Positions 1,007 through 7,925 of a DNA stretch of 64,000 nucleotides are shown one piece after another. This stretch comes from a phage, in the sequence record PZ154897.1. One strand, 5' to 3'. Position numbers and translations under genes: made by a program. Each line of letters begins with the position of its first letter. The stretch's first letter is position 1. The notes below the pieces were generated by a model. It saw only the letters and a program-made list of their open reading frames with translations. It did not search any database and had not been told where the DNA came from.

Positions 1007-1467
1007 TAATAAAGGTCCTCAGAGTAAAGTTCTTTTTCACTACCACCACGTTCAATACGCACTTGTCCAGCATAAGTTGCAATAATCATTGCTTCTTCAC
1101 GTGTCCAATAATTACTATATTGGTCAATAAACCCTTGGTCATCATCACAAACTTGCTGAGTAACTAATTGGGGTTTAACTACATCTAAAACTGCTGCCAT
1201 ATCTTTAGAATAATGACGAGCACCCGGAATAATAAGAGTTCGTCCATCTTTTAATTTAAAACGGTTGGCTGCGCAAACAATCCGTCGTTGGTACTTTTGG
1301 TTTTCATCCCAGTATGCAGACTGCCAACAGATTTCCGGAACTTCTGCAAGAATATCTTCTTCTGTGCATTTATAACCATGTGCTTTAAATTTTTCAACAA
1401 GACTTTCTGGAGTCTCACGAGATAAAGGAACATTCAGCATTTTTAAACGATTAATAAATGGATTCAT
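1006..1467 (-). CDS. hypothetical protein (153 aa)
   Basis: ORF; overlaps neighbours by 1-4 nt. Confidence 0.55.
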
Positions 1468-1793
1468 TTAAACCATCCTTTAATACGCTGCCATAAAGTT
1501 TTCTGTTGAGCTTTGTTAACACCAATTGAGCGAATAACTGGTTGAGATTCCTGGAATTCTTTATAATCAGCAAGGTAAATTTCGTAAGCTGCATCCGTAA
1601 ATGAACTTATCGCTGCCATAAAATTATTGCGAATACCTACTGGAGCATCTTTACTTTCACGAATAATCATGTATTTACCGGTCTTAATCTTTACGATAGT
1701 TCCAAGATAAGCTCCATGGTACCAGATATCCCACCCCTCTTGAGTGGGTTCTGCACAACGACGAAGTTCATTGATAATTTCTAACTTGTTCAT
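1464..1793 (-). CDS. hypothetical protein (109 aa)
   Basis: ORF immediately downstream of motA. Confidence 0.55.
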
Positions 1794-1803
1794 TATTTAT
1801 TCC

Positions 1804-2439
1804 TCACAGTTCAGATGCTACAGTAATTACAGCTTCAATGTTTTCTGCCGAGCGTTTAATGTCAAGATACACATTACCGTTTTTAGCGATTTTACATGAC
1901 ATTCCGATATCAGTAAATTTCTGAATATGATGTTCCATCATTTTGTATCCAAAAATTCGCATATTTCCATTGTTGTTAATTTCAAAATTACGAATTCCGT
2001 GAGTGCGTTTTTCTAAAATAGCAAGATAGTTACTACGATAAGTTTCAACCTTTTTAAGAACAAATCCATTTTCATCTAAAAGTTTTAACATGAAGTCTTT
2101 ATCTTCTTCCATATCAGAAGTAATCTCGCGAGCTTTACGAGTTGCTCGTTTTTTCAGCAGTTCAGGAGCGTTTTCCTGCGCGTATAAAGTTGCCGCATTT
2201 GAAATAATATCCTGAGCTTCACCTGTAATGATTAATCCATCACCAGATTTCTCTACCAGGCCTTTTTTAATCAATACCCCAATATTACTATTAACTACTG
2301 CATTACCTAAATCTGGATGCACCTCACGAACTTCTGCAGCTGTAATGAAATCTTTCTTAGCAATGGTAATTAAAATCGCAGCAGTTTTTTCATTCAGAAC
2401 ATCGTTAGAAGCTTTGATGATGTAAGTTACTTTAGACAT
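1804..2439 (-). CDS. motA: MotA, activator of middle transcription
   Basis: 211-aa ORF, length and sequence as recalled for T4 MotA; synteny next to gene 52. Confidence 0.85.
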   Translation of the reverse strand: MSKVTYIIKASNDVLNEKTAAILITIAKKDFITAAEVREVHPDLGNAVVNSNIGVLIKKGLVEKSGDGLIITGEAQDIISNAATLYAQENAPELLKKRATRKAREITSDMEEDKDFMLKLLDENGFVLKKVETYRSNYLAILEKRTHGIRNFEINNNGNMRIFGYKMMEHHIQKFTDIGMSCKIAKNGNVYLDIKRSAENIEAVITVASEL

Positions 2440-2460
2440 TTTCTAATCTCCGTAATTCTG

Positions 2461-2490
2461 TATCAGTAGTTGATAGTTGTATAGTACCAC
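2461..2490 (-). promoter_or_regulatory. conserved -10/leader module (tggTACTATAcaactatcaactac) upstream of motA, no clear -35
   Basis: same ~30-bp module recurs at 6057, 13451, 32432, 60915, 62351. Confidence 0.4.
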
Positions 2491-2519
2491 AGTATGCTTT
2501 GGTCGGCTCTCCCTAAAAT

Positions 2520-2669
2520 TTACTGCATGACTGTGATAACTGTCATAATAACACGTTGAATTCCGAATGCAAGAAGACCTCCTGCTACGGCTTGAACAAC
2601 ACCTAAACCCGCCAGTAAAATACTACCGGATACTAATGCAGCGCTTGTAATACCTATGAATGGACTCAT
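2520..2669 (-). CDS. small hydrophobic peptide (49 aa), start overlaps gene 52 stop
   Basis: hand-translated: ATG at 2669 overlapping TGA of gene 52 (ATGA); continuous ORF to TAA at 2520. Confidence 0.45.
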   Translation of the reverse strand: MSPFIGITSAALVSGSILLAGLGVVQAVAGGLLAFGIQRVIMTVITVMQ

Positions 2670-3994
2670 TTGATTTCCTCTAAATCTTTGGTGTATTCTG
2701 TAACTACATCAGTAGTTTTCCAATATTCGTTTTCTTCTTTTTTAGCTTTAGCTTCTTCAGCAAGTTTCTTTGCTTCGTCAGAAGTCATATGAAAAATGTT
2801 CATTCCAACTAGTTTATCAACATAAGAAGAATACATATCAATTTTAGAAAGTTCTTCGGTCAGTTCTTTGCGAGTTTTACCTTGTACAACAATTTCACCT
2901 GAAATTACTTTCTTAATGAAATGTGCCTTAGCAAAAGCTAAACGAAATGCTGATTCAGTTTCTTTGATTTTGTTATCAATTCGTTTTTGGACATAAGTTT
3001 TACGAACTTCAACGAAGTCTTTAATTAAATCAACTACGTTATCGTAAACTTGCAGCTTTCCTTTCTCATTAATAACGGTAATATTCTGGGAACGACGCTC
3101 AATCAACCCGAAGTCTTTCATAATTTTTGCATGGCGTTCTTCTTCGTTATCACTCAAAGAGTATTCTTTACGGATTTTAACTTTGAAGCCAAAGCCATGC
3201 TCACCACAAGCATCATCCCATGTAATGAAGCCTTTATCTTCAAGTGGGTCTAAGATTTTACTCACATAAGTTTCACGATCATACTTATACGGAATCTCAG
3301 TGATATTCATTTGAGTTCGTGAAGTAAACTTGTACGTTCCACGAATTTCATATTGACCGTCAATTTCAACGACTTCACCACGAAATTCTGGGAATTCTAC
3401 CTTCGGTTTAGTTACTTTCTTTCCTTGAAGAGCTTGTAGTACAGCTTTCTTGACAGAAGAAACACTATGAGGAAGAATGTAAGTTGCATAACCAGTTGCA
3501 ATACCGGAAACACCATTAAGAAGAACAGTAGGAATAATAGGCAAATAGAAAGCAGGCGGAATGTGTTCTTTATCTTGATGTACCGGAGCATATTCAGTAT
3601 CTTTATATACGTTATAGAAATTTTTACTTACGCGAGCAAAAATATAACGACTTGCCGCTGCTTTTTGAACGGTACGAGAACCAAAGTTTCCTTGACCGTC
3701 TAACAGAGGAAAGTTATTATTCCAAGTGTTAGCCATCAAAGCCCCCGCATCTTGTGCAGAGTTTTCACCATGATGATATCCAAGGTCTGCTACACCACCT
3801 GCAATAGAAGCAAGTTTGTGAAACTTATCTTTATTTCCTCGCGCCAAATCAAGAGCTCGAGCAATAACAAATCGTTGGACTGGCTTAAATCCATCAATCA
3901 TATTTGGAATAGCACGATTTTCAACCGTGTACATAGCATAAGCCAGTGCTTCATTATCAATGATACTTTTTAAATCGCGATTATTCAGTTGCAT
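2666..3994 (-). CDS. 52: DNA topoisomerase II medium subunit (GyrA-like)
   Basis: 442-aa ORF, T4 gp52 length; breakage-reunion domain residues; synteny. Confidence 0.93.
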   Translation of the reverse strand: MQLNNRDLKSIIDNEALAYAMYTVENRAIPNMIDGFKPVQRFVIARALDLARGNKDKFHKLASIAGGVADLGYHHGENSAQDAGALMANTWNNNFPLLDGQGNFGSRTVQKAAASRYIFARVSKNFYNVYKDTEYAPVHQDKEHIPPAFYLPIIPTVLLNGVSGIATGYATYILPHSVSSVKKAVLQALQGKKVTKPKVEFPEFRGEVVEIDGQYEIRGTYKFTSRTQMNITEIPYKYDRETYVSKILDPLEDKGFITWDDACGEHGFGFKVKIRKEYSLSDNEEERHAKIMKDFGLIERRSQNITVINEKGKLQVYDNVVDLIKDFVEVRKTYVQKRIDNKIKETESAFRLAFAKAHFIKKVISGEIVVQGKTRKELTEELSKIDMYSSYVDKLVGMNIFHMTSDEAKKLAEEAKAKKEENEYWKTTDVVTEYTKDLEEIK

Positions 3995-3998
3995 AAAT

Positions 3999-4139
3999 TT
4001 ACCATACTAGTGAATGTAGTGCCATAATAACATCAGAAATGAAAAGCACGACTTGAATTAATCCGAACATTACTCCATAATATAGTGCTATCAATAAAAT
4101 AGCAAGGGCTACCGAGTAGCCCAAGATTTTCTTAATCAT
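3999..4139 (-). CDS. small membrane peptide (46 aa)
   Basis: hand-translated; ATG overlaps ac stop; ends 5 nt before gene 52 ATG. Confidence 0.45.
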   Translation of the reverse strand: MIKKILGYSVALAILLIALYYGVMFGLIQVVLFISDVIMALHSLVW

Positions 4140-4287
4140 TAGATAACAACGCAAATGTTAAATATGCACACATACCCTGGGCTAAAGCTTGTGAAAACAC
4201 ACTGCTAGCATCGATACAGATAGTTAAAACACATGCTACTATCCAACAAATAAATGAAATAACTCCTAATAGTTTTGCGATATTCAT
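4132..4287 (-). CDS. ac: Ac-like membrane peptide (51 aa)
   Basis: 51-aa hydrophobic ORF with GAGGA SD, between stp and 52 as in T4. Confidence 0.7.
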   Translation of the reverse strand: MNIAKLLGVISFICWIVACVLTICIDASSVFSQALAQGMCAYLTFALLSND

Positions 4288-4294
4288 ATTTTCC

Positions 4295-4375
4295 TCACTG
4301 GCGTCCGAAGACGCCTTTAGTTTTAAGATTGTTACGATAGAACTGCATCACATGTTCATTATGGAAATTACTCAT
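4295..4375 (-). CDS. stp: Stp peptide (26 aa)
   Basis: hand translation gives [26 protein letters not shown], matching T4 Stp as I recall it; TAATG overlap with ndd stop. Confidence 0.9.
4300..4315 (-). other. UUCG-tetraloop RNA hairpin inside stp coding sequence
   Basis: ggcgtc-cgaa-gacgcc on + strand = GGCGUC UUCG GACGCC on mRNA. Confidence 0.5.
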
Positions 4376-4830
4376 TAATATGCCTGCAAAACAAATTTAA
4401 AGTTATCAGCCAACATACGGTTCATTTCTTCAAGCGTTTGATACTCAGAATGATGATTACGAGTAAACGCTAAAGCTAACTGACCTTTTCCAAATCCCGT
4501 CGTCAGAGGTTTCATCTTAGAAGCAGGTAGATAAAATACTGTGTATGGAACATTATTATTTGCAATAGTACGCGCAAGCTGAGATCGACGCTGGCGAATA
4601 TGACTTAGAACTGCACTGAATCCTTGCTTAGAACGCTGATTACCTACATAAAATCGTGCAGATACACATGGACTATCAAATGGACCACCAAATTTGCTCA
4701 CTAAAAAGTAAAATCCAGGGTTAGACAAAATGTCTTTATGCGGAGTTCCAAAAACCCATTCACCGCCCTTGATTGTACCAATAACAGTTGCGCCTGCATT
4801 ATTCAAATCAGTAACAGTCATATATTTCAT
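4375..4830 (-). CDS. ndd: Ndd, host nucleoid disruption protein
   Basis: 151-aa ORF, T4 Ndd length; position next to stp. Confidence 0.8.
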
Positions 4831-4889
4831 GTTAATTTCCTCTAATTATTTTCTACTCCAAGGCCGCATGAATGCACACGGCCGATAAA

Positions 4890-5105
4890 TTAATCGTCGC
4901 AGTCGACGCTCAATTCCCAGAACTCTTCTACAGTATAAGTTTCAGTATCATTTTCAATACAGAAACGTTCATTGCTGTTGTTTGCTAAAGTAGCGTTAAC
5001 TGTCATTTTCTCGCTAGTGCTCTTAAGAGGAGAAATACGAATTAACTGATCACCATTATCTAAGCAAAAAATTTCGCCAACTTTTATATCTTTAAAAAAT
5101 TTCAT
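4890..5105 (-). CDS. hypothetical protein (71 aa)
   Basis: ORF. Confidence 0.5.
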   Translation of the reverse strand: MKFFKDIKVGEIFCLDNGDQLIRISPLKSTSEKMTVNATLANNSNERFCIENDTETYTVEEFWELSVDCDD

Positions 5106-5113
5106 AATTCACC

Positions 5114-5221
5114 TCAAGGAGTATAAAATCCAAATGCAGTTGTTGACCATCCCATCCAATATGGGATATTTGCGCCAATGTAAAATACAAGAATATAAAA
5201 CCAAATGCTTAGTAAATTCAT
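5114..5221 (-). CDS. micro-ORF, hydrophobic peptide (35 aa)
   Basis: hand-translated; ATG overlaps stop of upstream ORF (TAATG). Confidence 0.35.
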   Translation of the reverse strand: MNLLSIWFYILVFYIGANIPYWMGWSTTAFGFYTP

Positions 5222-5418
5222 TATTTTACACCATTCCAAATTGTTTCAACCACAGATTTCAAACCATTTTGGTGAATATCCATTCCGACAACCGCCATCA
5301 AATAGATTCCAACCACAACTGAACCCAAGGCGAAAATCAGCATGAAAATGAATAAAGCTGGAAAAATATTATCGAAAAACCATTCCATAAATGTAAAAGC
5401 ACTGCGTTTACGCTTCAT
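5221..5418 (-). CDS. small membrane protein (65 aa)
   Basis: ORF-track 5221..5439 trimmed to ATG with GAGGA SD. Confidence 0.5.
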   Translation of the reverse strand: MKRKRSAFTFMEWFFDNIFPALFIFMLIFALGSVVVGIYLMAVVGMDIHQNGLKSVVETIWNGVK

Positions 5419-5425
5419 ATTTTCC

Positions 5426-5539
5426 TCACATAAATCCAAAGTAAGCGTTTAATACATCAATCATTAAAATGATTGGGAATATACTTAAAACTACTAGTAT
5501 TATAACTACATTCCATATAGCTTTAACAATCTTTTTCAT
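5426..5539 (-). CDS. small membrane peptide (37 aa)
   Basis: internal ATG of ORF 5426..5674; GGAGG SD; early promoter directly upstream. Confidence 0.5.
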   Translation of the reverse strand: MKKIVKAIWNVVIILVVLSIFPIILMIDVLNAYFGFM

Positions 5540-5559
5540 TTTCTGTTCCTCCGTAGTTG

Positions 5560-5598
5560 ATAGGGTAATAATACCACAGAGGAACAGTCTTGTAAACA
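5560..5598 (-). promoter_or_regulatory. T4-type early promoter (GTTTAC -35 / TATTAT -10) with flanking 9-bp inverted repeat
   Basis: minus strand reads GTTTACaagactgttcctctgtggtATTATTA; near-identical to cassette at 60905-60962. Confidence 0.6.
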
Positions 5599-5604
5599 AC
5601 TTTT

Positions 5605-5703
5605 TTAAAAATATTCGTAATAAATGTGAATACCAACTACTACTGCTGAAACTTGCGCAACCCACCATGCACAAGCAATAAGTACAGAATTCAAAATTTT
5701 CAT
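5605..5703 (-). CDS. micro-ORF, hydrophobic peptide (32 aa)
   Basis: hand-translated; GAGG SD; ATGA overlap with upstream micro-ORF. Confidence 0.4.
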   Translation of the reverse strand: MKILNSVLIACAWWVAQVSAVVVGIHIYYEYF

Positions 5704-5786
5704 AATAACCTCATCACAAAAGTAAATGTTAAACAAATTAATGGAATACTAATTAACCAAACGAAACACCACCATAATGAACTCAT
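5700..5786 (-). CDS. micro-ORF, hydrophobic peptide (28 aa)
   Basis: hand-translated; ATGA overlap with stop of ORF 5783..6046. Confidence 0.4.
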   Translation of the reverse strand: MSSLWWCFVWLISIPLICLTFTFVMRLL

Positions 5787-6046
5787 AGTTCAATCTCAGC
5801 GATTTTCATTTCATTACTATTAATAGCCGCTTTAAGACTATCTGAAAGAATTACATTCCAGTGGTCATTCATATGACCATTAACTAAGCGTGTAATTTCT
5901 TCGGGAGTTGAAAAATAAGGCGTATCAGACTCCCAATGCGATAGTCCCAAGCGAGTATAAATCATACCTTCATCACCGCTAGAATATTCAACTGACACAA
6001 ACTCATCAGTTATTTTATGTTTAGCGTAATAAAATTTAAATTTCAT
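5783..6046 (-). CDS. hypothetical protein (87 aa)
   Basis: ORF with GGAGG SD and early promoter upstream. Confidence 0.55.
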   Translation of the reverse strand: MKFKFYYAKHKITDEFVSVEYSSGDEGMIYTRLGLSHWESDTPYFSTPEEITRLVNGHMNDHWNVILSDSLKAAINSNEMKIAEIEL

Positions 6047-6069
6047 TTTTACTCCTCCGTAGCTGATAG

Positions 6070-6104
6070 TTGTATAGTACCACGGTCCTTGTGGTATGTA
6101 AACT
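6070..6104 (-). promoter_or_regulatory. T4-type early promoter (TTTACA -35 / TACTAT -10)
   Basis: minus strand reads cagTTTACAtaccacaaggaccgtggTACTATA then conserved leader. Confidence 0.6.
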
Positions 6105-6119
6105 GTTTTGTGAAAATTT

Positions 6120-6677
6120 TTAAATGGAAAGATACCATCCGTTGTAGTTGCTTTTTCTTACAACCTTACGAAGGTCTTCTCTATCACCGATGAACTTCGG
6201 AGTGTACTGGATGACACCTGGATGAATTTCTTTAGTGTTGAATATAATTATACAGTCAGCGACTTGGTGATTCAGAATGGGCCCTAGATTTATTCCAGAA
6301 CCGTATGGATACTCTCCGCTGCATCCGGTTGTTACCGAAATCCAACGTGAGTCAGTTTGGTGTGTCTTAACTTCTACACGAAGCCCACAGTATTTTGGAT
6401 GCGCCAATACATCCCATGCGTATGTATACGGGTCATTAACATCCTCTTGGCCTTTGTTAACATACCCGCTTAGCCAATCTGCTACAAAAAACTCTGCATA
6501 TACAGCGATACGACATCTTTCAATAACTTCTGCTTTATCCTGATTAGGATTTTGTTTTAAAGAGTATCTTGCTGTATCAGCAATTTTGACCTTCATTTCA
6601 CTAGTCAAATCATTGTTCGATAGGGTAAATGTTGGAATCTGAAATAGTCTCTGTAAACCCGGATTCGTTTTCTGCAT
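6120..6677 (-). CDS. denB: endonuclease IV (DenB)
   Basis: 185-aa ORF, T4 DenB length; synteny between ndd region and rIIB. Confidence 0.75.
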   Translation of the reverse strand: MQKTNPGLQRLFQIPTFTLSNNDLTSEMKVKIADTARYSLKQNPNQDKAEVIERCRIAVYAEFFVADWLSGYVNKGQEDVNDPYTYAWDVLAHPKYCGLRVEVKTHQTDSRWISVTTGCSGEYPYGSGINLGPILNHQVADCIIIFNTKEIHPGVIQYTPKFIGDREDLRKVVRKSNYNGWYLSI

Positions 6678-6742
6678 TAAACTTTCCTTTTACGTCGGAA
6701 TCACTGATATTCATATAATAAATCATAGTTTCTCTTAAAACA

Positions 6743-6760
6743 AAAGGGCCGAAGCCCTTT
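6743..6760 (-). terminator. intrinsic terminator, UUCG-tetraloop hairpin plus U-tract
   Basis: aaagggc-cgaa-gcccttt; mRNA AAAGGGC UUCG GCCCUUU followed by UGUUUU. Confidence 0.6.
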
Positions 6761-6763
6761 ATT

Positions 6764-6958
6764 TTATTTGAATTGTGCAATTCTTTTCTCTAAACAATCT
6801 GCATAAGATTTCATTGAGATAAACTGCGAAAGCAACAGTTCTTGCTCAACTGCATTAACCGTTGAAAACTTTTCACTTTCTAAAAATTTGCTCAATGCAT
6901 TAATTTTGAGCATTAATTGATCGTATTCTTCTTTTACTCGTGCTTGATAACCTAACAT
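6764..6958 (-). CDS. hypothetical protein (64 aa)
   Basis: ORF between rIIB and denB. Confidence 0.5.
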   Translation of the reverse strand: MLGYQARVKEEYDQLMLKINALSKFLESEKFSTVNAVEQELLLSQFISMKSYADCLEKRIAQFK

Positions 6959-6971
6959 AATTTTCCTTAGT

Positions 6972-6989
6972 TAAGGGCCGAAGCCCTTA
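6972..6989 (-). other. UUCG-tetraloop RNA hairpin overlapping rIIB stop
   Basis: taagggc-cgaa-gccctta. Confidence 0.5.
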
Positions 6990-7925
6990 TTTAAATTGTT
7001 CAGTAACGTCTTCAACTACTTCGTATTGGCAGGTACGCATTTTAGCATCGTTGTAATCAATTGGAATTGATACTACATCGCGAGGATGTACTTTAACTTT
7101 TACAACTCGGCTGGTTGAACTGCCAAAGTGACGAATATAAGATTTAGAACACACATGCAGACCATGAGAACAAGTTTGTGTATCATCGTCATTCACACGA
7201 GTACGTGGCATTTTAACTACTTTACCCGGACTGTTATCAAAGGTGTTTGAGTGACAGTCAAAGTAATTGCTACGAACTACTTTCCAAGCATAGAAGTAAC
7301 CATCTTCTGTAATTTCAATATCGTTTGCTACCAAGAAATCAAAGAGTCGAGATACCGCTTTTTGGCTTGGGTTTTCCAACAGATTTTCCAAGAACGGAAA
7401 ATAAAATTCAAAGTTTTCGCCTTTTTCCATCGAGTCAAGAATACGATCAACCAAACCAGACCGCAATTCAATATTTTGATAGAACAGGCTTCCACCTTCA
7501 ATTCGAACATCGCCGGAAATATATTTTTCAACAGCGCGACGAACATTAATTTTTTGTGCCGCTTCTTCCAATTTATCTGCAACAAGCAGATTAAGAATTT
7601 CCTGGAAGTTTGAATGAGTATTAGGAGTTGCGTTATAAGTTACACCGTCAACAGTAATTGAAATGAATTTTTTAGATGCATTCCAAATAATGTCAGATTT
7701 AGCAACTGGAGCAATAACTGCATCGCTATTAACTTTAACTGTAATATCACCGCTAATAGTAACTTTAGGGCGTTTAGCTTCTTCAGCATTTTTCAAAACA
7801 CGACGGATTGTGTCAACCGATACATCCTTCCAATAAGCCAATTCCTGTTGGGTGTAATTACCGCTTGAATACAGTTTAACAATTTCAGCTTGTTCGTTTT
7901 TGGTCAGGCATTTAATATTGTACAT
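6987..7925 (-). CDS. rIIB: rIIB membrane-associated protein
   Basis: 312-aa ORF, T4 rIIB length; adjacent to rIIA. Confidence 0.9.
   Translation of the reverse strand: MYNIKCLTKNEQAEIVKLYSSGNYTQQELAYWKDVSVDTIRRVLKNAEEAKRPKVTISGDITVKVNSDAVIAPVAKSDIIWNASKKFISITVDGVTYNATPNTHSNFQEILNLLVADKLEEAAQKINVRRAVEKYISGDVRIEGGSLFYQNIELRSGLVDRILDSMEKGENFEFYFPFLENLLENPSQKAVSRLFDFLVANDIEITEDGYFYAWKVVRSNYFDCHSNTFDNSPGKVVKMPRTRVNDDDTQTCSHGLHVCSKSYIRHFGSSTSRVVKVKVHPRDVVSIPIDYNDAKMRTCQYEVVEDVTEQFK

Follow-up and report, generated by a model that had tools for sequence, protein, structure and literature searches.

The window, a stretch of phage DNA of 64,000 nucleotides (PZ154897.1), belongs to a T4-like coliphage (Tequatrovirus) with approximately 95–97% identity to T4 and T2. 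Nine ORFs of 26–65 codons had been listed between motA and denB in a sequence-only reading; all were present as described, encoding 26–65 aa from ATG starts on the minus strand and ending where that reading had placed them. They corresponded one to one to T4 motA.1, 52.1, ac, stp, ndd.2, ndd.2a/ndd.3, ndd.4, ndd.5, and ndd.6. The features of the region are as follows:

2520–2669, minus strand: motA.1, 49 aa, Gly/Ala-rich, hydrophobic; start overlaps the gene 52 stop (ATGA)
2666–3994, minus strand: gene 52 (topoisomerase II medium subunit), 99–100% identity to T4/T2 gp52
3999–4139, minus strand: 52.1, 46 aa, hydrophobic, Pfam DUF7396; without a Shine-Dalgarno sequence
4132–4287, minus strand: ac, 51-aa membrane peptide, acridine-sensitivity determinant
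4295–4375, minus strand: stp, 26 aa, hydrophilic, activator of host PrrC; start overlaps the ndd stop (TAATG)
4300–4315, minus strand: RNA hairpin of the C(UUCG)G type, GGCGUCUUCGGACGCC, −11.5 kcal/mol, z −2.9
4375–4830, minus strand: ndd (nucleoid disruption; context gene), 95% identity to T4 Ndd; stp is coupled to it
About 4862–4885, minus strand: RNA hairpin between ndd.1 and ndd; the 44-nt stretch containing it (4852–4895) has −15.1 kcal/mol, z −2.4
4890–5105, minus strand: ndd.1 (context gene), soluble, 71 aa, 96% identity to T4 Ndd.1
5114–5221, minus strand: ndd.2, 35 aa, aromatic-rich, hydrophobic; start overlaps the upstream stop (TAATG)
5221–5418, minus strand: 65-aa DUF7248 protein (T4 “ndd.3” and “ndd.2a” in one frame)
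5426–5539, minus strand: ndd.4, 37 aa, predicted N-in; first cistron after an early promoter
5568–5596, minus strand: early sigma-70 promoter, TTTACA-17-TATTAT, extended TG
5605–5703, minus strand: ndd.5, 32 aa, hydrophobic; ATGA-coupled to ndd.6
5700–5786, minus strand: ndd.6, 28 aa, Cys/Trp-rich, hydrophobic; ATGA-coupled to the 87-aa ORF
5783–6046, minus strand: 87-aa ORF, soluble, absent from T4
6074–6102, minus strand: early sigma-70 promoter, TTTACA-17-TACTAT, extended TG

The non-essential T4 region between gene 52 and rIIB (NC_000866) matched the window in gene order, strand, spacing, and overlaps, and the micro-ORF products shared 89–100% amino acid identity with their T4 counterparts and belonged to identical PHROG and Pfam families. 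The window differed in having a single, intact gene of 65 codons in place of the ndd.3 and ndd.2a of the T4 reference, an additional 87-aa ORF between denB and ndd.6, a motA.1–motA spacer approximately 47 nt shorter, and Q26 in MotA.1, where other phages have P. The ndd.2a/ndd.3 split in T4 results from a base missing from the T4 reference sequence.

A PHROG family was matched by each of the nine ORFs, including MotA.1 (98% identity to T4/T2 MotA.1; phrog_3487, E=3e-30), 52.1 (phrog_3595), Ac (96–98% identity to T2/T4 Ac; phrog_2501), Ndd.2 (phrog_4135), the 65-aa protein (phrog_2401), Ndd.4 (phrog_3098), Ndd.5 (phrog_5011), and Ndd.6 (phrog_8851). The Pfam scan assigned 52.1 to DUF7396 (PF24129, 78.8 bits, cut-off 27), the 65-aa protein to DUF7248 (PF23906, 73.4 bits, cut-off 27), and Stp, identical to T4 Stp, to PF08133 (75.3 bits, cut-off 25). 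Thus, the micro-ORFs had been observed correctly, but they are not a discovery: all nine genes have long been annotated in T4 (NC_000866), all have PHROG families, and two have Pfam DUFs. The 87-aa ORF matched phrog_2390 (E=2e-45) and was found in 17 of 20 Tequatroviruses (pN/pS 0.43), with 29–32% identity in other lineages.

Short frames of this kind might be untranslated, in part or in whole, either as chance frames in an AT-rich spacer or as carriers of RNA signals (promoters, hairpins, processing sites). In line with this, the coding strand is T-rich and alternative-frame hydrophobic ORFs are common in it (31 across the window's minus strand), and hairpins lie within stp and 52.1. We compared the sense-strand ORFs (26 codons or more) of the three inter-gene gaps with those of 1000 dinucleotide shuffles. 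ORFs covered 97%, 95%, and 64% of the gaps, versus 32%, 25%, and 12% in the shuffles, and the gaps held 5, 2, and 1 hydrophobic ORFs, versus 0.45, 0.16, and 0.01 expected (P = 0.000, 0.006, and 0.013), so the ORF packing was well beyond that of shuffled sequence. The nine frames were intact in 20 Tequatroviruses, as would be expected of the conserved frames that the sequence-only reading had proposed to check; the sole real frameshift was that of the T4 reference. For seven of the nine, pN/pS was 0.05–0.14 in the annotated frame only (ac 0.05; motA.1 and ndd.5 0.08; stp, the 65-codon gene, and ndd.6 0.09; ndd.2 0.14), and the other two frames mostly gave values above 1; the control genes gave 0.02–0.11 and ndd.1 0.08. 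In ndd.5, which was restricted to Tequatrovirus, 10 of 12 variable sites were third codon positions.

The value for 52.1 was intermediate (0.31), and ndd.4 showed no synonymous excess within Tequatrovirus (1.26 on seven variable sites), which favors an untranslated ndd.4; conservation across lineages (52–58% identity, with the motif MKK..K.IWN...VL.IFP...ID) nevertheless points to a coding role for this gene. Recognizable homologs in other T4-like lineages were found for six of the nine, namely 52.1, ndd.4, ndd.6, ndd.2a/3, ndd.2, and motA.1, and all six keep invariant polar or aromatic motifs at 40–90% identity, e.g., F..G.N.PYW.G in Ndd.2, WC..W...IP.IC..F in Ndd.6, and, invariant across lineages, the C-terminal GLKSVVxxIWNG of the 65-aa protein. 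The 52.1 gene was present in 813 T4-like phage records, and its product had only eight cluster representatives among 1.84 billion proteins. An Rfam search gave no family match, and genetic phenotypes exist for Stp and Ac. With frame-specific synonymous excess and no frame-breaking indels in 20 genomes, we regard lack of translation as very improbable. The nine micro-ORFs are genuine phage protein-coding genes under purifying selection.

Stop-start overlaps were found at five junctions: ATGA at gp52/motA.1, ndd.6/ndd.5, and orf87/ndd.6, and TAATG at ndd/stp and ndd.2a3/ndd.2. An overlap of 8 nt joins ac and 52.1, and another four junctions have gaps of only 4–8 nt. The picture of chains linked by ATGA or TAATG overlaps therefore stood for these junctions, several of which are coupled, but the chain is not one unit because it is split by the promoters at 6102–6074 and 5596–5568 and the hairpins at 4862–4885 and 4300–4315. 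The latter hairpin lies within the 3′ end of stp, directly upstream of the ac Shine-Dalgarno sequence, and is annotated in related phages as a putative terminator. A plausible Shine-Dalgarno sequence had been ascribed to every ORF; a strong one (GAGG/GGAGG) was found on five only, i.e., motA.1 (GAGG), ac, 5221–5418, ndd.4 (GGAGGA), and ndd.5. It was weak or absent in 52.1, stp, ndd.2, and ndd.6, whose starts overlap an upstream stop, which fits re-initiation.

Both promoters match the PST/T4 PeSL consensus TTTACW-N17-TAYWAT, and a 38-nt promoter and leader cassette occurs three times in the window (2453–2490, 5540–5577, and 6046–6083). The ndd.6/ndd.5 unit begins with the 87-aa ORF, and the ndd.4 cassette ends with ndd.1. 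PeSL cassettes combine an early promoter with a stem-loop and mediate the shuffling of modules in T4-type hyperplastic regions (PMC2839356, PMC4122927). A published example of exchange is T4 ndd.4/ndd.5 itself, in whose place phage PST has other ORFs (PMC4122927, Fig. 6A). In the related lineages examined, different families of small hydrophobic ORFs likewise occupied the equivalent positions. Immediately upstream of the two window promoters, a search showed no stem-loop; only the promoter half of the PeSL motif was seen.

A separate observation concerned gene 52, which has 52.1 on its upstream and motA.1 on its downstream side: most lineages carry a hydrophobic micro-ORF in translational coupling with it. 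Among 35 sequences, from most of the sampled lineages, 30 had such an ORF, of 22–77 aa, with its start at or next to the gene 52 stop codon (ATGA overlap in 27, TAATG in one, and a start 7 nt before the stop in two), and the peptides formed at least eight unrelated sequence groups. It was lacking in one whole lineage (L014, L017, L019, and L020) and in L029.

The products had been described as mostly single-pass membrane peptides. This held for eight of them (28–65 aa), which are predicted to be single-pass or hairpin peptides, each having a single hydrophobic helix of membrane-spanning length; Stp is hydrophilic (GRAVY −1.03). The 19-residue hydropathy maxima of the eight were 1.64–3.06, with uncharged stretches of 21–38 residues and an asymmetric charge distribution. 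Topology was deduced from hydropathy and charge only, and the positive N-termini of Ndd.4, Ndd.2a/3, and 52.1 suggest an N-in orientation. The 65-aa protein combines a KRKR N-terminus with a transmembrane helix; AF2 modeled it as one helix (residues 3–64, pLDDT 84).

Known roles within the nine are limited to Stp, which activates PrrC, and Ac, which determines acridine sensitivity. As had been suspected, the other seven lack functional characterization: no described function was found for them in the open-access literature searched, and their entries in the CRISPRi-ART tables read “Unknown.” Ac expression alone sensitizes E. coli to acriflavine, and a block of AcrAB-TolC has been proposed (bioRxiv 10.1101/2025.06.30.662393; PMC13250531). 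The window Ac is the same protein and carries D26-A27 and G38, matching that study. As the sole hydrophobic member with a phenotype, it serves as a working model for its neighbors, although these show no sequence similarity to it. In size (below about 50 aa), in having a single transmembrane helix, and in presumably acting on a larger membrane protein that they bind, the window peptides resemble small inner-membrane regulators of bacteria (AcrZ-AcrB, MgrB-PhoQ, MgtS-MgtA, and the like; reviewed in PMC12648545). No homology to these regulators came up in the searches made, and the comparison concerns the possible mode of action only; unlike them, the window peptides are phage-encoded, transcribed right after infection, and confined to T4-like phages.

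The increase in drug sensitivity upon Ac expression would also fit peptides that shut off the host by membrane damage in the manner of type I toxins or holins, depolarizing or permeabilizing the membrane without a specific partner. The helices are indeed very short and highly hydrophobic, and MotA.1 contains a glycine-zipper-like sequence (GxxxxxGxG...AGG). However, early depolarization would harm a phage that needs host energy for approximately 25 minutes, the conserved motifs and strong purifying selection at specific residues point to specific contacts rather than bulk hydrophobicity, and the Pfam and PHROG scans detected no similarity to holin or toxin families. This mode of action is thus quite improbable.

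In T4, RNA-seq classed all these genes as “early” transcripts (PMC9697503 supplement). The T4 LC-MS time course placed the eight hydrophobic ORFs in protein class “none”; this lack of detected peptides would suit untranslated frames, and the authors blamed small size. CRISPRi-ART knock-down of each micro-gene was “Not Fit,” and gene 52 alone in this stretch was “Fit,” i.e., required (PMC11879866 supplement). A GT7-type T4 deletion of 3.25 kb (165,257–168,510), which removes ac to denB.1, and with them most of the micro-genes, and truncates 52.1, is viable (PMC9712115). In the T4_583L mutant, ndd.4 is missing together with parts of the adjacent genes. Dispensability on laboratory E. coli is consistent with, though no proof of, a conditional accessory role; the membrane-targeted host takeover or defense modulation proposed in the sequence-only reading is a candidate role.

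These data also bear on the idea that the peptides serve membrane-associated machinery of the phage itself rather than host targets. In this view, 52.1 and whichever ORF is coupled to the stop of gene 52 would be made together with the gp39/gp52/gp60 topoisomerase (the DNA-delay complex) and, as its partners, would tether or organize it at the inner membrane. According to papers of the 1970s on membrane fractionation, gp52 and gp39 are reportedly membrane-associated. In nearly all lineages, 52.1 sits 4–10 nt upstream of gene 52, and it is more conserved (83–91% identity) than gp52 in the same lineages (only 69–81%); the recurrence of hydrophobic ORFs from unrelated groups at the gene 52 stop points the same way. 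However, knock-down of motA.1 or 52.1 had no fitness effect, unlike that of gene 52, truncation of 52.1 was tolerated, and some phages have no such ORF at the gene 52 stop. Moreover, the peptides 3′ of gene 52 are non-homologous between lineages, which a permissive insertion site at the operon end would explain equally well. We consider this role unlikely.

Early transcription and a predicted inner-membrane location are likewise compatible with envelope-directed exclusion or lysis-timing factors of the Imm/Sp/RI kind, which would block entry of superinfecting DNA or tune lysis inhibition. T4 Imm, Sp, RI, and RIII are also early, small, and membrane- or periplasm-directed, with conditional phenotypes. 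The conserved C-terminal motif of the 65-aa protein would be periplasmic if this protein is N-in as predicted, and the genes adjoin rIIB and rIIA, which handle prophage-encoded exclusion. However, the Pfam and PHROG scans showed no similarity of the window ORFs to the Imm, Sp, RI, or RIII families, and we know of no exclusion or lysis-inhibition phenotype reported for the classical T4 deletions of the region or for the ORFs themselves. There is, in our judgment, little chance that the peptides act in this way.

The reading that we favor, and hold to be moderately probable, is that the region, known to be hyperplastic, carries immediate-early cassettes for micro-proteins of the inner membrane, and that each of these modulates a membrane target in certain circumstances. 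Host sigma-70 RNA polymerase would start at the repeated early-promoter cassettes (6102–6074 and 5596–5568), with read-through from upstream units, and polycistronic mRNAs would arise in the opening minutes of infection. The first cistrons would be translated from strong GGAG-type Shine-Dalgarno sequences, and 52.1, stp, ndd.2, and ndd.6 by ribosomes terminating at the overlapping upstream stop. The hydrophobic peptides would then insert into the host inner membrane, where helix-helix contacts and short conserved motifs may let each bind, and so modulate, a particular membrane-embedded component of the host, a prophage, or a defense system, with Ac as the model; Stp is the exception, a soluble peptide acting on the EcoprrI-PrrC complex. 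The benefit of each peptide would vary with host or condition, and the genes would therefore be dispensable in the laboratory yet conserved, and would sit in a hyperplastic region that exchanges promoter-flanked cassettes.

A megablast search with positions 1800–6700 against 50,697 phage records gave 482 that span 80% or more of the query, led by Tequatrovirus genomes with 95–97% identity (~95% for T4 and T2). Mapping on the T2 and T4 annotations placed every gene of this stretch on the minus strand and identified the nine micro-ORFs (motA.1, 52.1, ac, stp, ndd.2, a 65-aa ORF, ndd.4, ndd.5, and ndd.6) exactly as annotated T4 genes. Their ATG starts and stops, as proposed in the sequence-only reading, were confirmed in the window sequence. 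The micro-genes are already known, having entries in the T4 reference annotation as well as in PHROGs and Pfam, and they reveal no new kind of element.

Genes in mRNA order; pN/pS values refer to the annotated frame
6987–7925, minus strand: rIIB
6764–6958, minus strand: denB.1
6120–6677, minus strand: denB (control gene, pN/pS 0.04)
5783–6046, minus strand: orf87, an 87-aa ORF that T4 lacks
5700–5786, minus strand: ndd.6 (pN/pS 0.09)
5605–5703, minus strand: ndd.5 (pN/pS 0.08)
5426–5539, minus strand: ndd.4 (pN/pS 1.26, with only 7 variable sites)
5221–5418, minus strand: 65-aa ORF, T4 ndd.3 plus ndd.2a (pN/pS 0.09)
5114–5221, minus strand: ndd.2 (pN/pS 0.14)
4890–5105, minus strand: ndd.1
4375–4830, minus strand: ndd (control gene, pN/pS 0.11)
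4295–4375, minus strand: stp (pN/pS 0.09)
4132–4287, minus strand: ac (pN/pS 0.05)
3999–4139, minus strand: 52.1 (pN/pS 0.31)
2666–3994, minus strand: gene 52 (control gene gp52, pN/pS 0.02)
2520–2669, minus strand: motA.1 (pN/pS 0.08)
1804–2439, minus strand: motA (control gene, pN/pS 0.03)

Chance alone produces many hydrophobic frames on the T-rich coding strand (31 ATG ORFs of 26–70 codons on the window's minus strand passed the hydropathy threshold); therefore, ORF packing itself was tested against 1000 dinucleotide-preserving shuffles. Sense-strand ORFs covered 97%, 95%, and 64% of the three inter-gene gaps versus 32%, 25%, and 12% in the shuffled sequences, and the gaps held 5, 2, and 1 hydrophobic ORFs against 0.45, 0.16, and 0.01 expected. 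The region was also aligned among 20 Tequatroviruses, comprising the window, T4 and T2 together with twelve GenBank phages and five IMG/VR contigs. All micro-ORFs were intact in 20/20 genomes; conservation of the reading frames among relatives, proposed earlier as a check, was thus observed. Third codon positions held most of the variation, and for most genes pN/pS exceeded 1 when these alignments were read in either of the other two frames. Apparent frameshifts in motA.1 and ndd.5 (indels of 1–2 nt) were rejected as gap placement in an A-run after the TAA stop.

The wider comparison comprised 36 IMG/VR loci surrounding homologues of ndd, whose products are 46–95% identical to the Ndd of the window; the family and synteny maps rest on heuristic gene calls with several mis-set starts (gp52 and 52.1 truncated). 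In these lineages, 52.1 was 83–91% identical where gp52 was only 69–81% identical. Identity was ~55–58% for ndd.4, ~40–59% for ndd.6, 36–51% for the 65-aa protein, 32–46% for ndd.2, and 38–45% for motA.1, while Tequatrovirus was the near-sole home of ac and ndd.5. Invariant motifs were found across lineages in 52.1 (..G..vLFisDvI..SLxW), ndd.4 (MKK..K.IWN..VL.IFP..ID), ndd.6 (WC..W...IP.IC..F), and ndd.2 (F..G.N.PYW.G).

All ten peptides of the interval matched PHROG families, which are of unknown function or bear generic labels ("periplasmic," "outer membrane protein"); the Pfam scan gave no match for 6/10 submitted peptides. Full-length HMM matches with E-values of 3e-17 to 3e-30 were obtained for MotA.1 (phrog_3487), Ndd.2 (phrog_4135), Ndd.4 (phrog_3098), Ndd.5 (phrog_5011), and Ndd.6 (phrog_8851), and Ac matched phrog_2501 (E = 5e-25) with 96–98% identity to T2/T4 Ac. 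Stp, 100% identical to T4 Stp, matched phrog_6763 and, over residues 1–26 of 26, PF08133 (anticodon nuclease activator; 75.3 bits, cut-off 25); the T4 annotation describes it as the PrrC/EcoprrI effector that activates PrrC via EcoprrI (NC_000866). Its gene directly follows ndd: at position 4375, the stp start and the ndd stop overlap in a TAATG. The 52.1 protein gave a full-length DUF7396 match (78.8 bits, gathering score 27, residues 1–46 of 46), and an exhaustive HMMER search found 8 representatives among 1.84 billion, seven of which (45–47 residues) were 52–89% identical. The 65-aa protein matched DUF7248, the T4 Ndd.2a family (73.4 bits, gathering score 27, profile positions 3–57 of 58), across its transmembrane segment and the C-terminal GLKSVVxxIWNG motif, which was invariant in 15 distinct sequences. 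AF2 predicted one long helix for this protein, a fold too simple for a fold search, and a word-indexed search returned 7 close relatives. The tblastn searches gave 813 phage records with 52.1 and 596 with ndd.4; among the matches listed, nearly all were 160–175-kb phages, mostly of enterobacteria, and some GenBank records had no annotated feature under the match.

An Rfam covariance-model scan of positions 2300–7000 (E up to 1) returned TarB as the only match, which at 25 bits (gathering threshold 80, E = 0.14) was at chance level, and the reading as non-coding RNA was rejected. Judged by the intact frames, the pN/pS values, the cross-lineage motifs, the database searches, and this Rfam result, the micro-ORFs are real, phage-specific protein genes. 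No ribosome-profiling data for them were found in a literature search; that they are untranslated frames is extremely improbable.

Several observations concern annotation. Shigella phage Sf25 provides a natural fusion: its 62-aa gp120 (P0006) joins the N-terminal part of Ndd.4 to the DUF7248 protein's C-terminal half. The Pfam domains precomputed for gp120 (PF26889 and PF23906) show that a separate Pfam family has meanwhile been made for Ndd.4; this family was absent from the results of the Pfam version scanned for the window peptides. Automated annotation of GenBank matches (H66–H145, L039–L050) often omitted 52.1, stp, and ndd.6, and sometimes ndd.2, ndd.4, and ndd.5. Some annotations gave spurious names: ndd.1 appeared as "naphthalene 1,2-dioxygenase," ndd.5 and ndd.6 as "outer membrane protein," the DUF7248 gene of HY03 as "baseplate wedge subunit," and motA.1 of phage N2 as "transcriptional regulator."

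At the equivalent of window 5221–5418, the T4 reference NC_000866 carries overlapping ndd.3 (26 aa) and ndd.2a (40 aa). One G is missing there just after the start, at ~166,623 (~6124 in our T4 locus, L002), giving ATGAA-CGT versus ATGAAGCGT in other genomes. A single intact 65-codon DUF7248 gene is present in OZ035787.1, an independent T4 assembly, as well as in T2, the window, and other Tequatroviruses. Thus, the ndd.2a/ndd.3 split, a mildly new point, is attributable to a single base missing in the reference, and "ndd.3" is, by this comparison, most likely an artefact. In the CRISPRi-ART table, ndd.3 is a PHROG singleton (PMC11879866).

Most of the micro-ORFs had been predicted to encode membrane peptides, which hydropathy supported for eight of the nine: their maximum Kyte-Doolittle 19-residue means were 1.64–3.06 (membrane-span threshold ≥1.6), with uncharged stretches of 21–38 residues, whereas Stp is hydrophilic (−0.85). 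The proposed linkage by ATGA or TAATG was accurate for five junctions, namely the ATGA overlaps at gp52/motA.1, ndd.6/ndd.5, and orf87/ndd.6 and the TAATG overlaps at ndd/stp and 65-aa ORF/ndd.2. At the ac/52.1 junction the overlap is 8 nt, and another four junctions have gaps of 4–8 nt. Similarly, a plausible Shine-Dalgarno sequence had been assigned to every ORF; it is strong before motA.1, ac, the 65-aa ORF, ndd.4, and ndd.5, but weak or missing before 52.1, stp, ndd.2, and ndd.6. The latter four all start on an overlapping upstream stop, which would be the arrangement expected for translational re-initiation.

The organization of the region suggested four transcription units. Two early promoters fit the consensus of the PST/T4 PeSL elements (TTTACW-N17-TAYWAT; PMC4122927), and each sits in a copy of a 38-nt block of promoter and leader sequence that occurs three times (6046–6083, 5540–5577, and 2453–2490).

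Predicted promoters and hairpins
6102–6074, minus strand: early promoter TTTACA-17-TACTAT, extended TG
5596–5568, minus strand: early promoter TTTACA-17-TATTAT, extended TG
4862–4883, minus strand: hairpin heading the third unit (−15.1 kcal/mol for the 44-nt stretch folded)
4300–4315, minus strand: C(UUCG)G tetraloop hairpin GGCGUCUUCGGACGCC in stp (−11.5 kcal/mol)
4106–4122: further hairpin

The putative units comprise orf87, ndd.6, and ndd.5; ndd.4, the 65-aa ORF, ndd.2, and ndd.1; ndd and stp, past the 4862–4883 hairpin; and ac, 52.1, gene 52, and motA.1, past the C(UUCG)G hairpin inside stp. The window shares the promoter half of the PeSL cassette; however, the terminator scan found no stem-loop beside either early promoter, and for this reason the promoters were not called full PeSLs. 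The published PeSL-mediated exchange is that of T4 ndd.4/.5 versus PST ORF268/269 (PMC4122927), and the synteny maps showed different hydrophobic ORF families in other lineages at these same positions.

The GGCGUCUUCGGACGCC hairpin encodes the conserved Stp C-terminus KGVFGRQ and is directly followed by the ac ribosome-binding site; because the KGVFGRQ codons form a stable hairpin, the 3' bases of stp are under both peptide and RNA constraint. The motA.1–motA spacer (2440–2519) is 80 nt long versus 127 nt in T4, T2, and G50; the extra sequence in G50 includes an annotated terminator hairpin (−17.7 kcal/mol), and the window spacer folds at the shuffled level (z = 0.04). Two GGGCCGAAGCCC hairpins (GGGCUUCGGCCC on the mRNA strand), each with a T-rich tail behind it, flank denB.1 at 6744–6768 and 6973–6997; they resemble intercistronic hairpins or terminators of the UUCG type. 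As for the soluble orf87 (phrog_2390), it occurred in 17/20 Tequatroviruses and was far more variable than the adjoining genes (pN/pS 0.43; 29–32% identity in other lineages). A shorter 68-aa ORF is annotated in this gap in T2, and G50 and SH-2 have an additional 68-aa ORF between orf87 and denB.

Just downstream of ndd in loci L014–L038, and at 2721–2894 of L049, lies a 51–61-aa hydrophobic family with the motif ...ERL..CGV.K, probably with two transmembrane segments; in stp-less lineages it is coupled to the ndd stop. Loci L012 and L036 and Tequatrovirus SholemSchwarzbard have both stp and the 51–61-aa ORF. Just downstream of motA lies a 109-aa ORF of the arn.4 family (1464–1793, minus strand), annotated as only 68 aa in T4. 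Its size, position, and 109-aa homologue in Mosigvirus-like loci suggest that it probably corresponds to Gp94 (Emp) of Mosigvirus AV110 as its homologue. Emp, an early protein of 109 aa encoded beside MotA, is reported to bind MreB, MreC, and MreD and to inhibit E. coli growth (bioRxiv 10.64898/2026.09.14.751387).

A comparison of the gene 52 stop (window 2666–2669) with the equivalent junctions in loci L001–L038 demonstrated that a hydrophobic ORF of 22–77 aa begins on or beside it in 30/35 T4-like sequences. An ATGA overlap was found in 27 and TAATG in L028, and in L022 and L023 the ORF starts 7 nt upstream of the stop; the ORF was absent in one lineage (L014, L017, L019, and L020) and in L029. 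The coupled peptides fall into at least eight unrelated sequence groups at the same junction, which indicates that the position is conserved and the sequence replaced. The persistence of a gene 52-coupled hydrophobic micro-ORF in most lineages despite repeated replacement is a mildly new point. On the other side, 52.1 lies just upstream of gene 52, which encodes the topoisomerase II medium subunit, and is better conserved than gp52. Hydrophobic micro-genes frame gene 52 in this way across the T4-like phages. These data bear on the possibility that the peptides act as partners for membrane-associated machinery of the phage itself, gp52 in particular, which we consider unlikely; a more specific version, in which the flanking peptides are co-translated partners placing or regulating the phage topoisomerase/replication complex at the inner membrane, seems quite unlikely. 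If it were true, selection would act on the membrane anchor and not on its sequence.

A T4 time course that combined dual RNA-seq with proteomics places the transcripts of motA.1, 52.1, ac, stp, and ndd.2 to ndd.6 in the "early" class and their products in the protein class "none" (PMC9697503 supplement); the 5-kDa Ndd.4 (P39249) was cited as too small for LC-MS (PMC9697503). In a genome-wide dCas13d knock-down of T4, all micro-genes were "Not Fit" and gene 52 was "Fit" (PMC11879866 supplement). When the GT7-type deletion (positions 165,257–168,510) was recreated in wild-type T4, the phage was viable, having lost ac through denB.1, with 52.1 and rIIB truncated (PMC9712115). In addition, a T4 mutant deposited as MZ375356.1 has lost ndd.4 together with parts of adjoining genes. 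A role of the peptides as exclusion or lysis-timing factors appears improbable. The open-access literature yielded no functional study of motA.1, 52.1, or ndd.2 to ndd.6, in agreement with the earlier view that only Stp and Ac are characterised.

Expression of ac alone made E. coli ~3 logs more sensitive to acriflavine and also sensitive to ampicillin; Ac was proposed to insert in the membrane and block AcrAB-TolC, and G38R led to resistance (bioRxiv 10.1101/2025.06.30.662393). A 2026 PNAS paper takes the same view (PMC13250531). The Ac of the window carries D26-A27 and G38. Sensitization by a single peptide might also be expected of non-specific membrane-damaging agents, which we regard as a very unlikely role for the group.

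It is established that the micro-ORFs are real genes with early transcripts (in T4), hydrophobic helices, dispensability, and cassette turnover. With Ac as a precedent for its neighbours, we consider it probable that the peptides insert into the host inner membrane within minutes of infection, where each would engage one specific partner embedded in the membrane, by helix packing and a short conserved motif, and so modulate it, with a benefit conditional on host or environment. The uncertainty lies mostly in the mode of action, with essentially none in gene identification.

To our knowledge, the majority of genes in T4, dozens of early micro-genes among them, are still without an assigned function, and proteomics and automated annotation miss small membrane proteins more often than any other class. 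The present analysis settles that the frames are genes under selection, brings together published data on their early expression class and dispensability, and corrects their boundaries, including the mending of T4 ndd.2a/ndd.3 into a single gene. The eight peptides form a compact panel with which membrane-bound host functions and defence systems could be probed in targeted tests.
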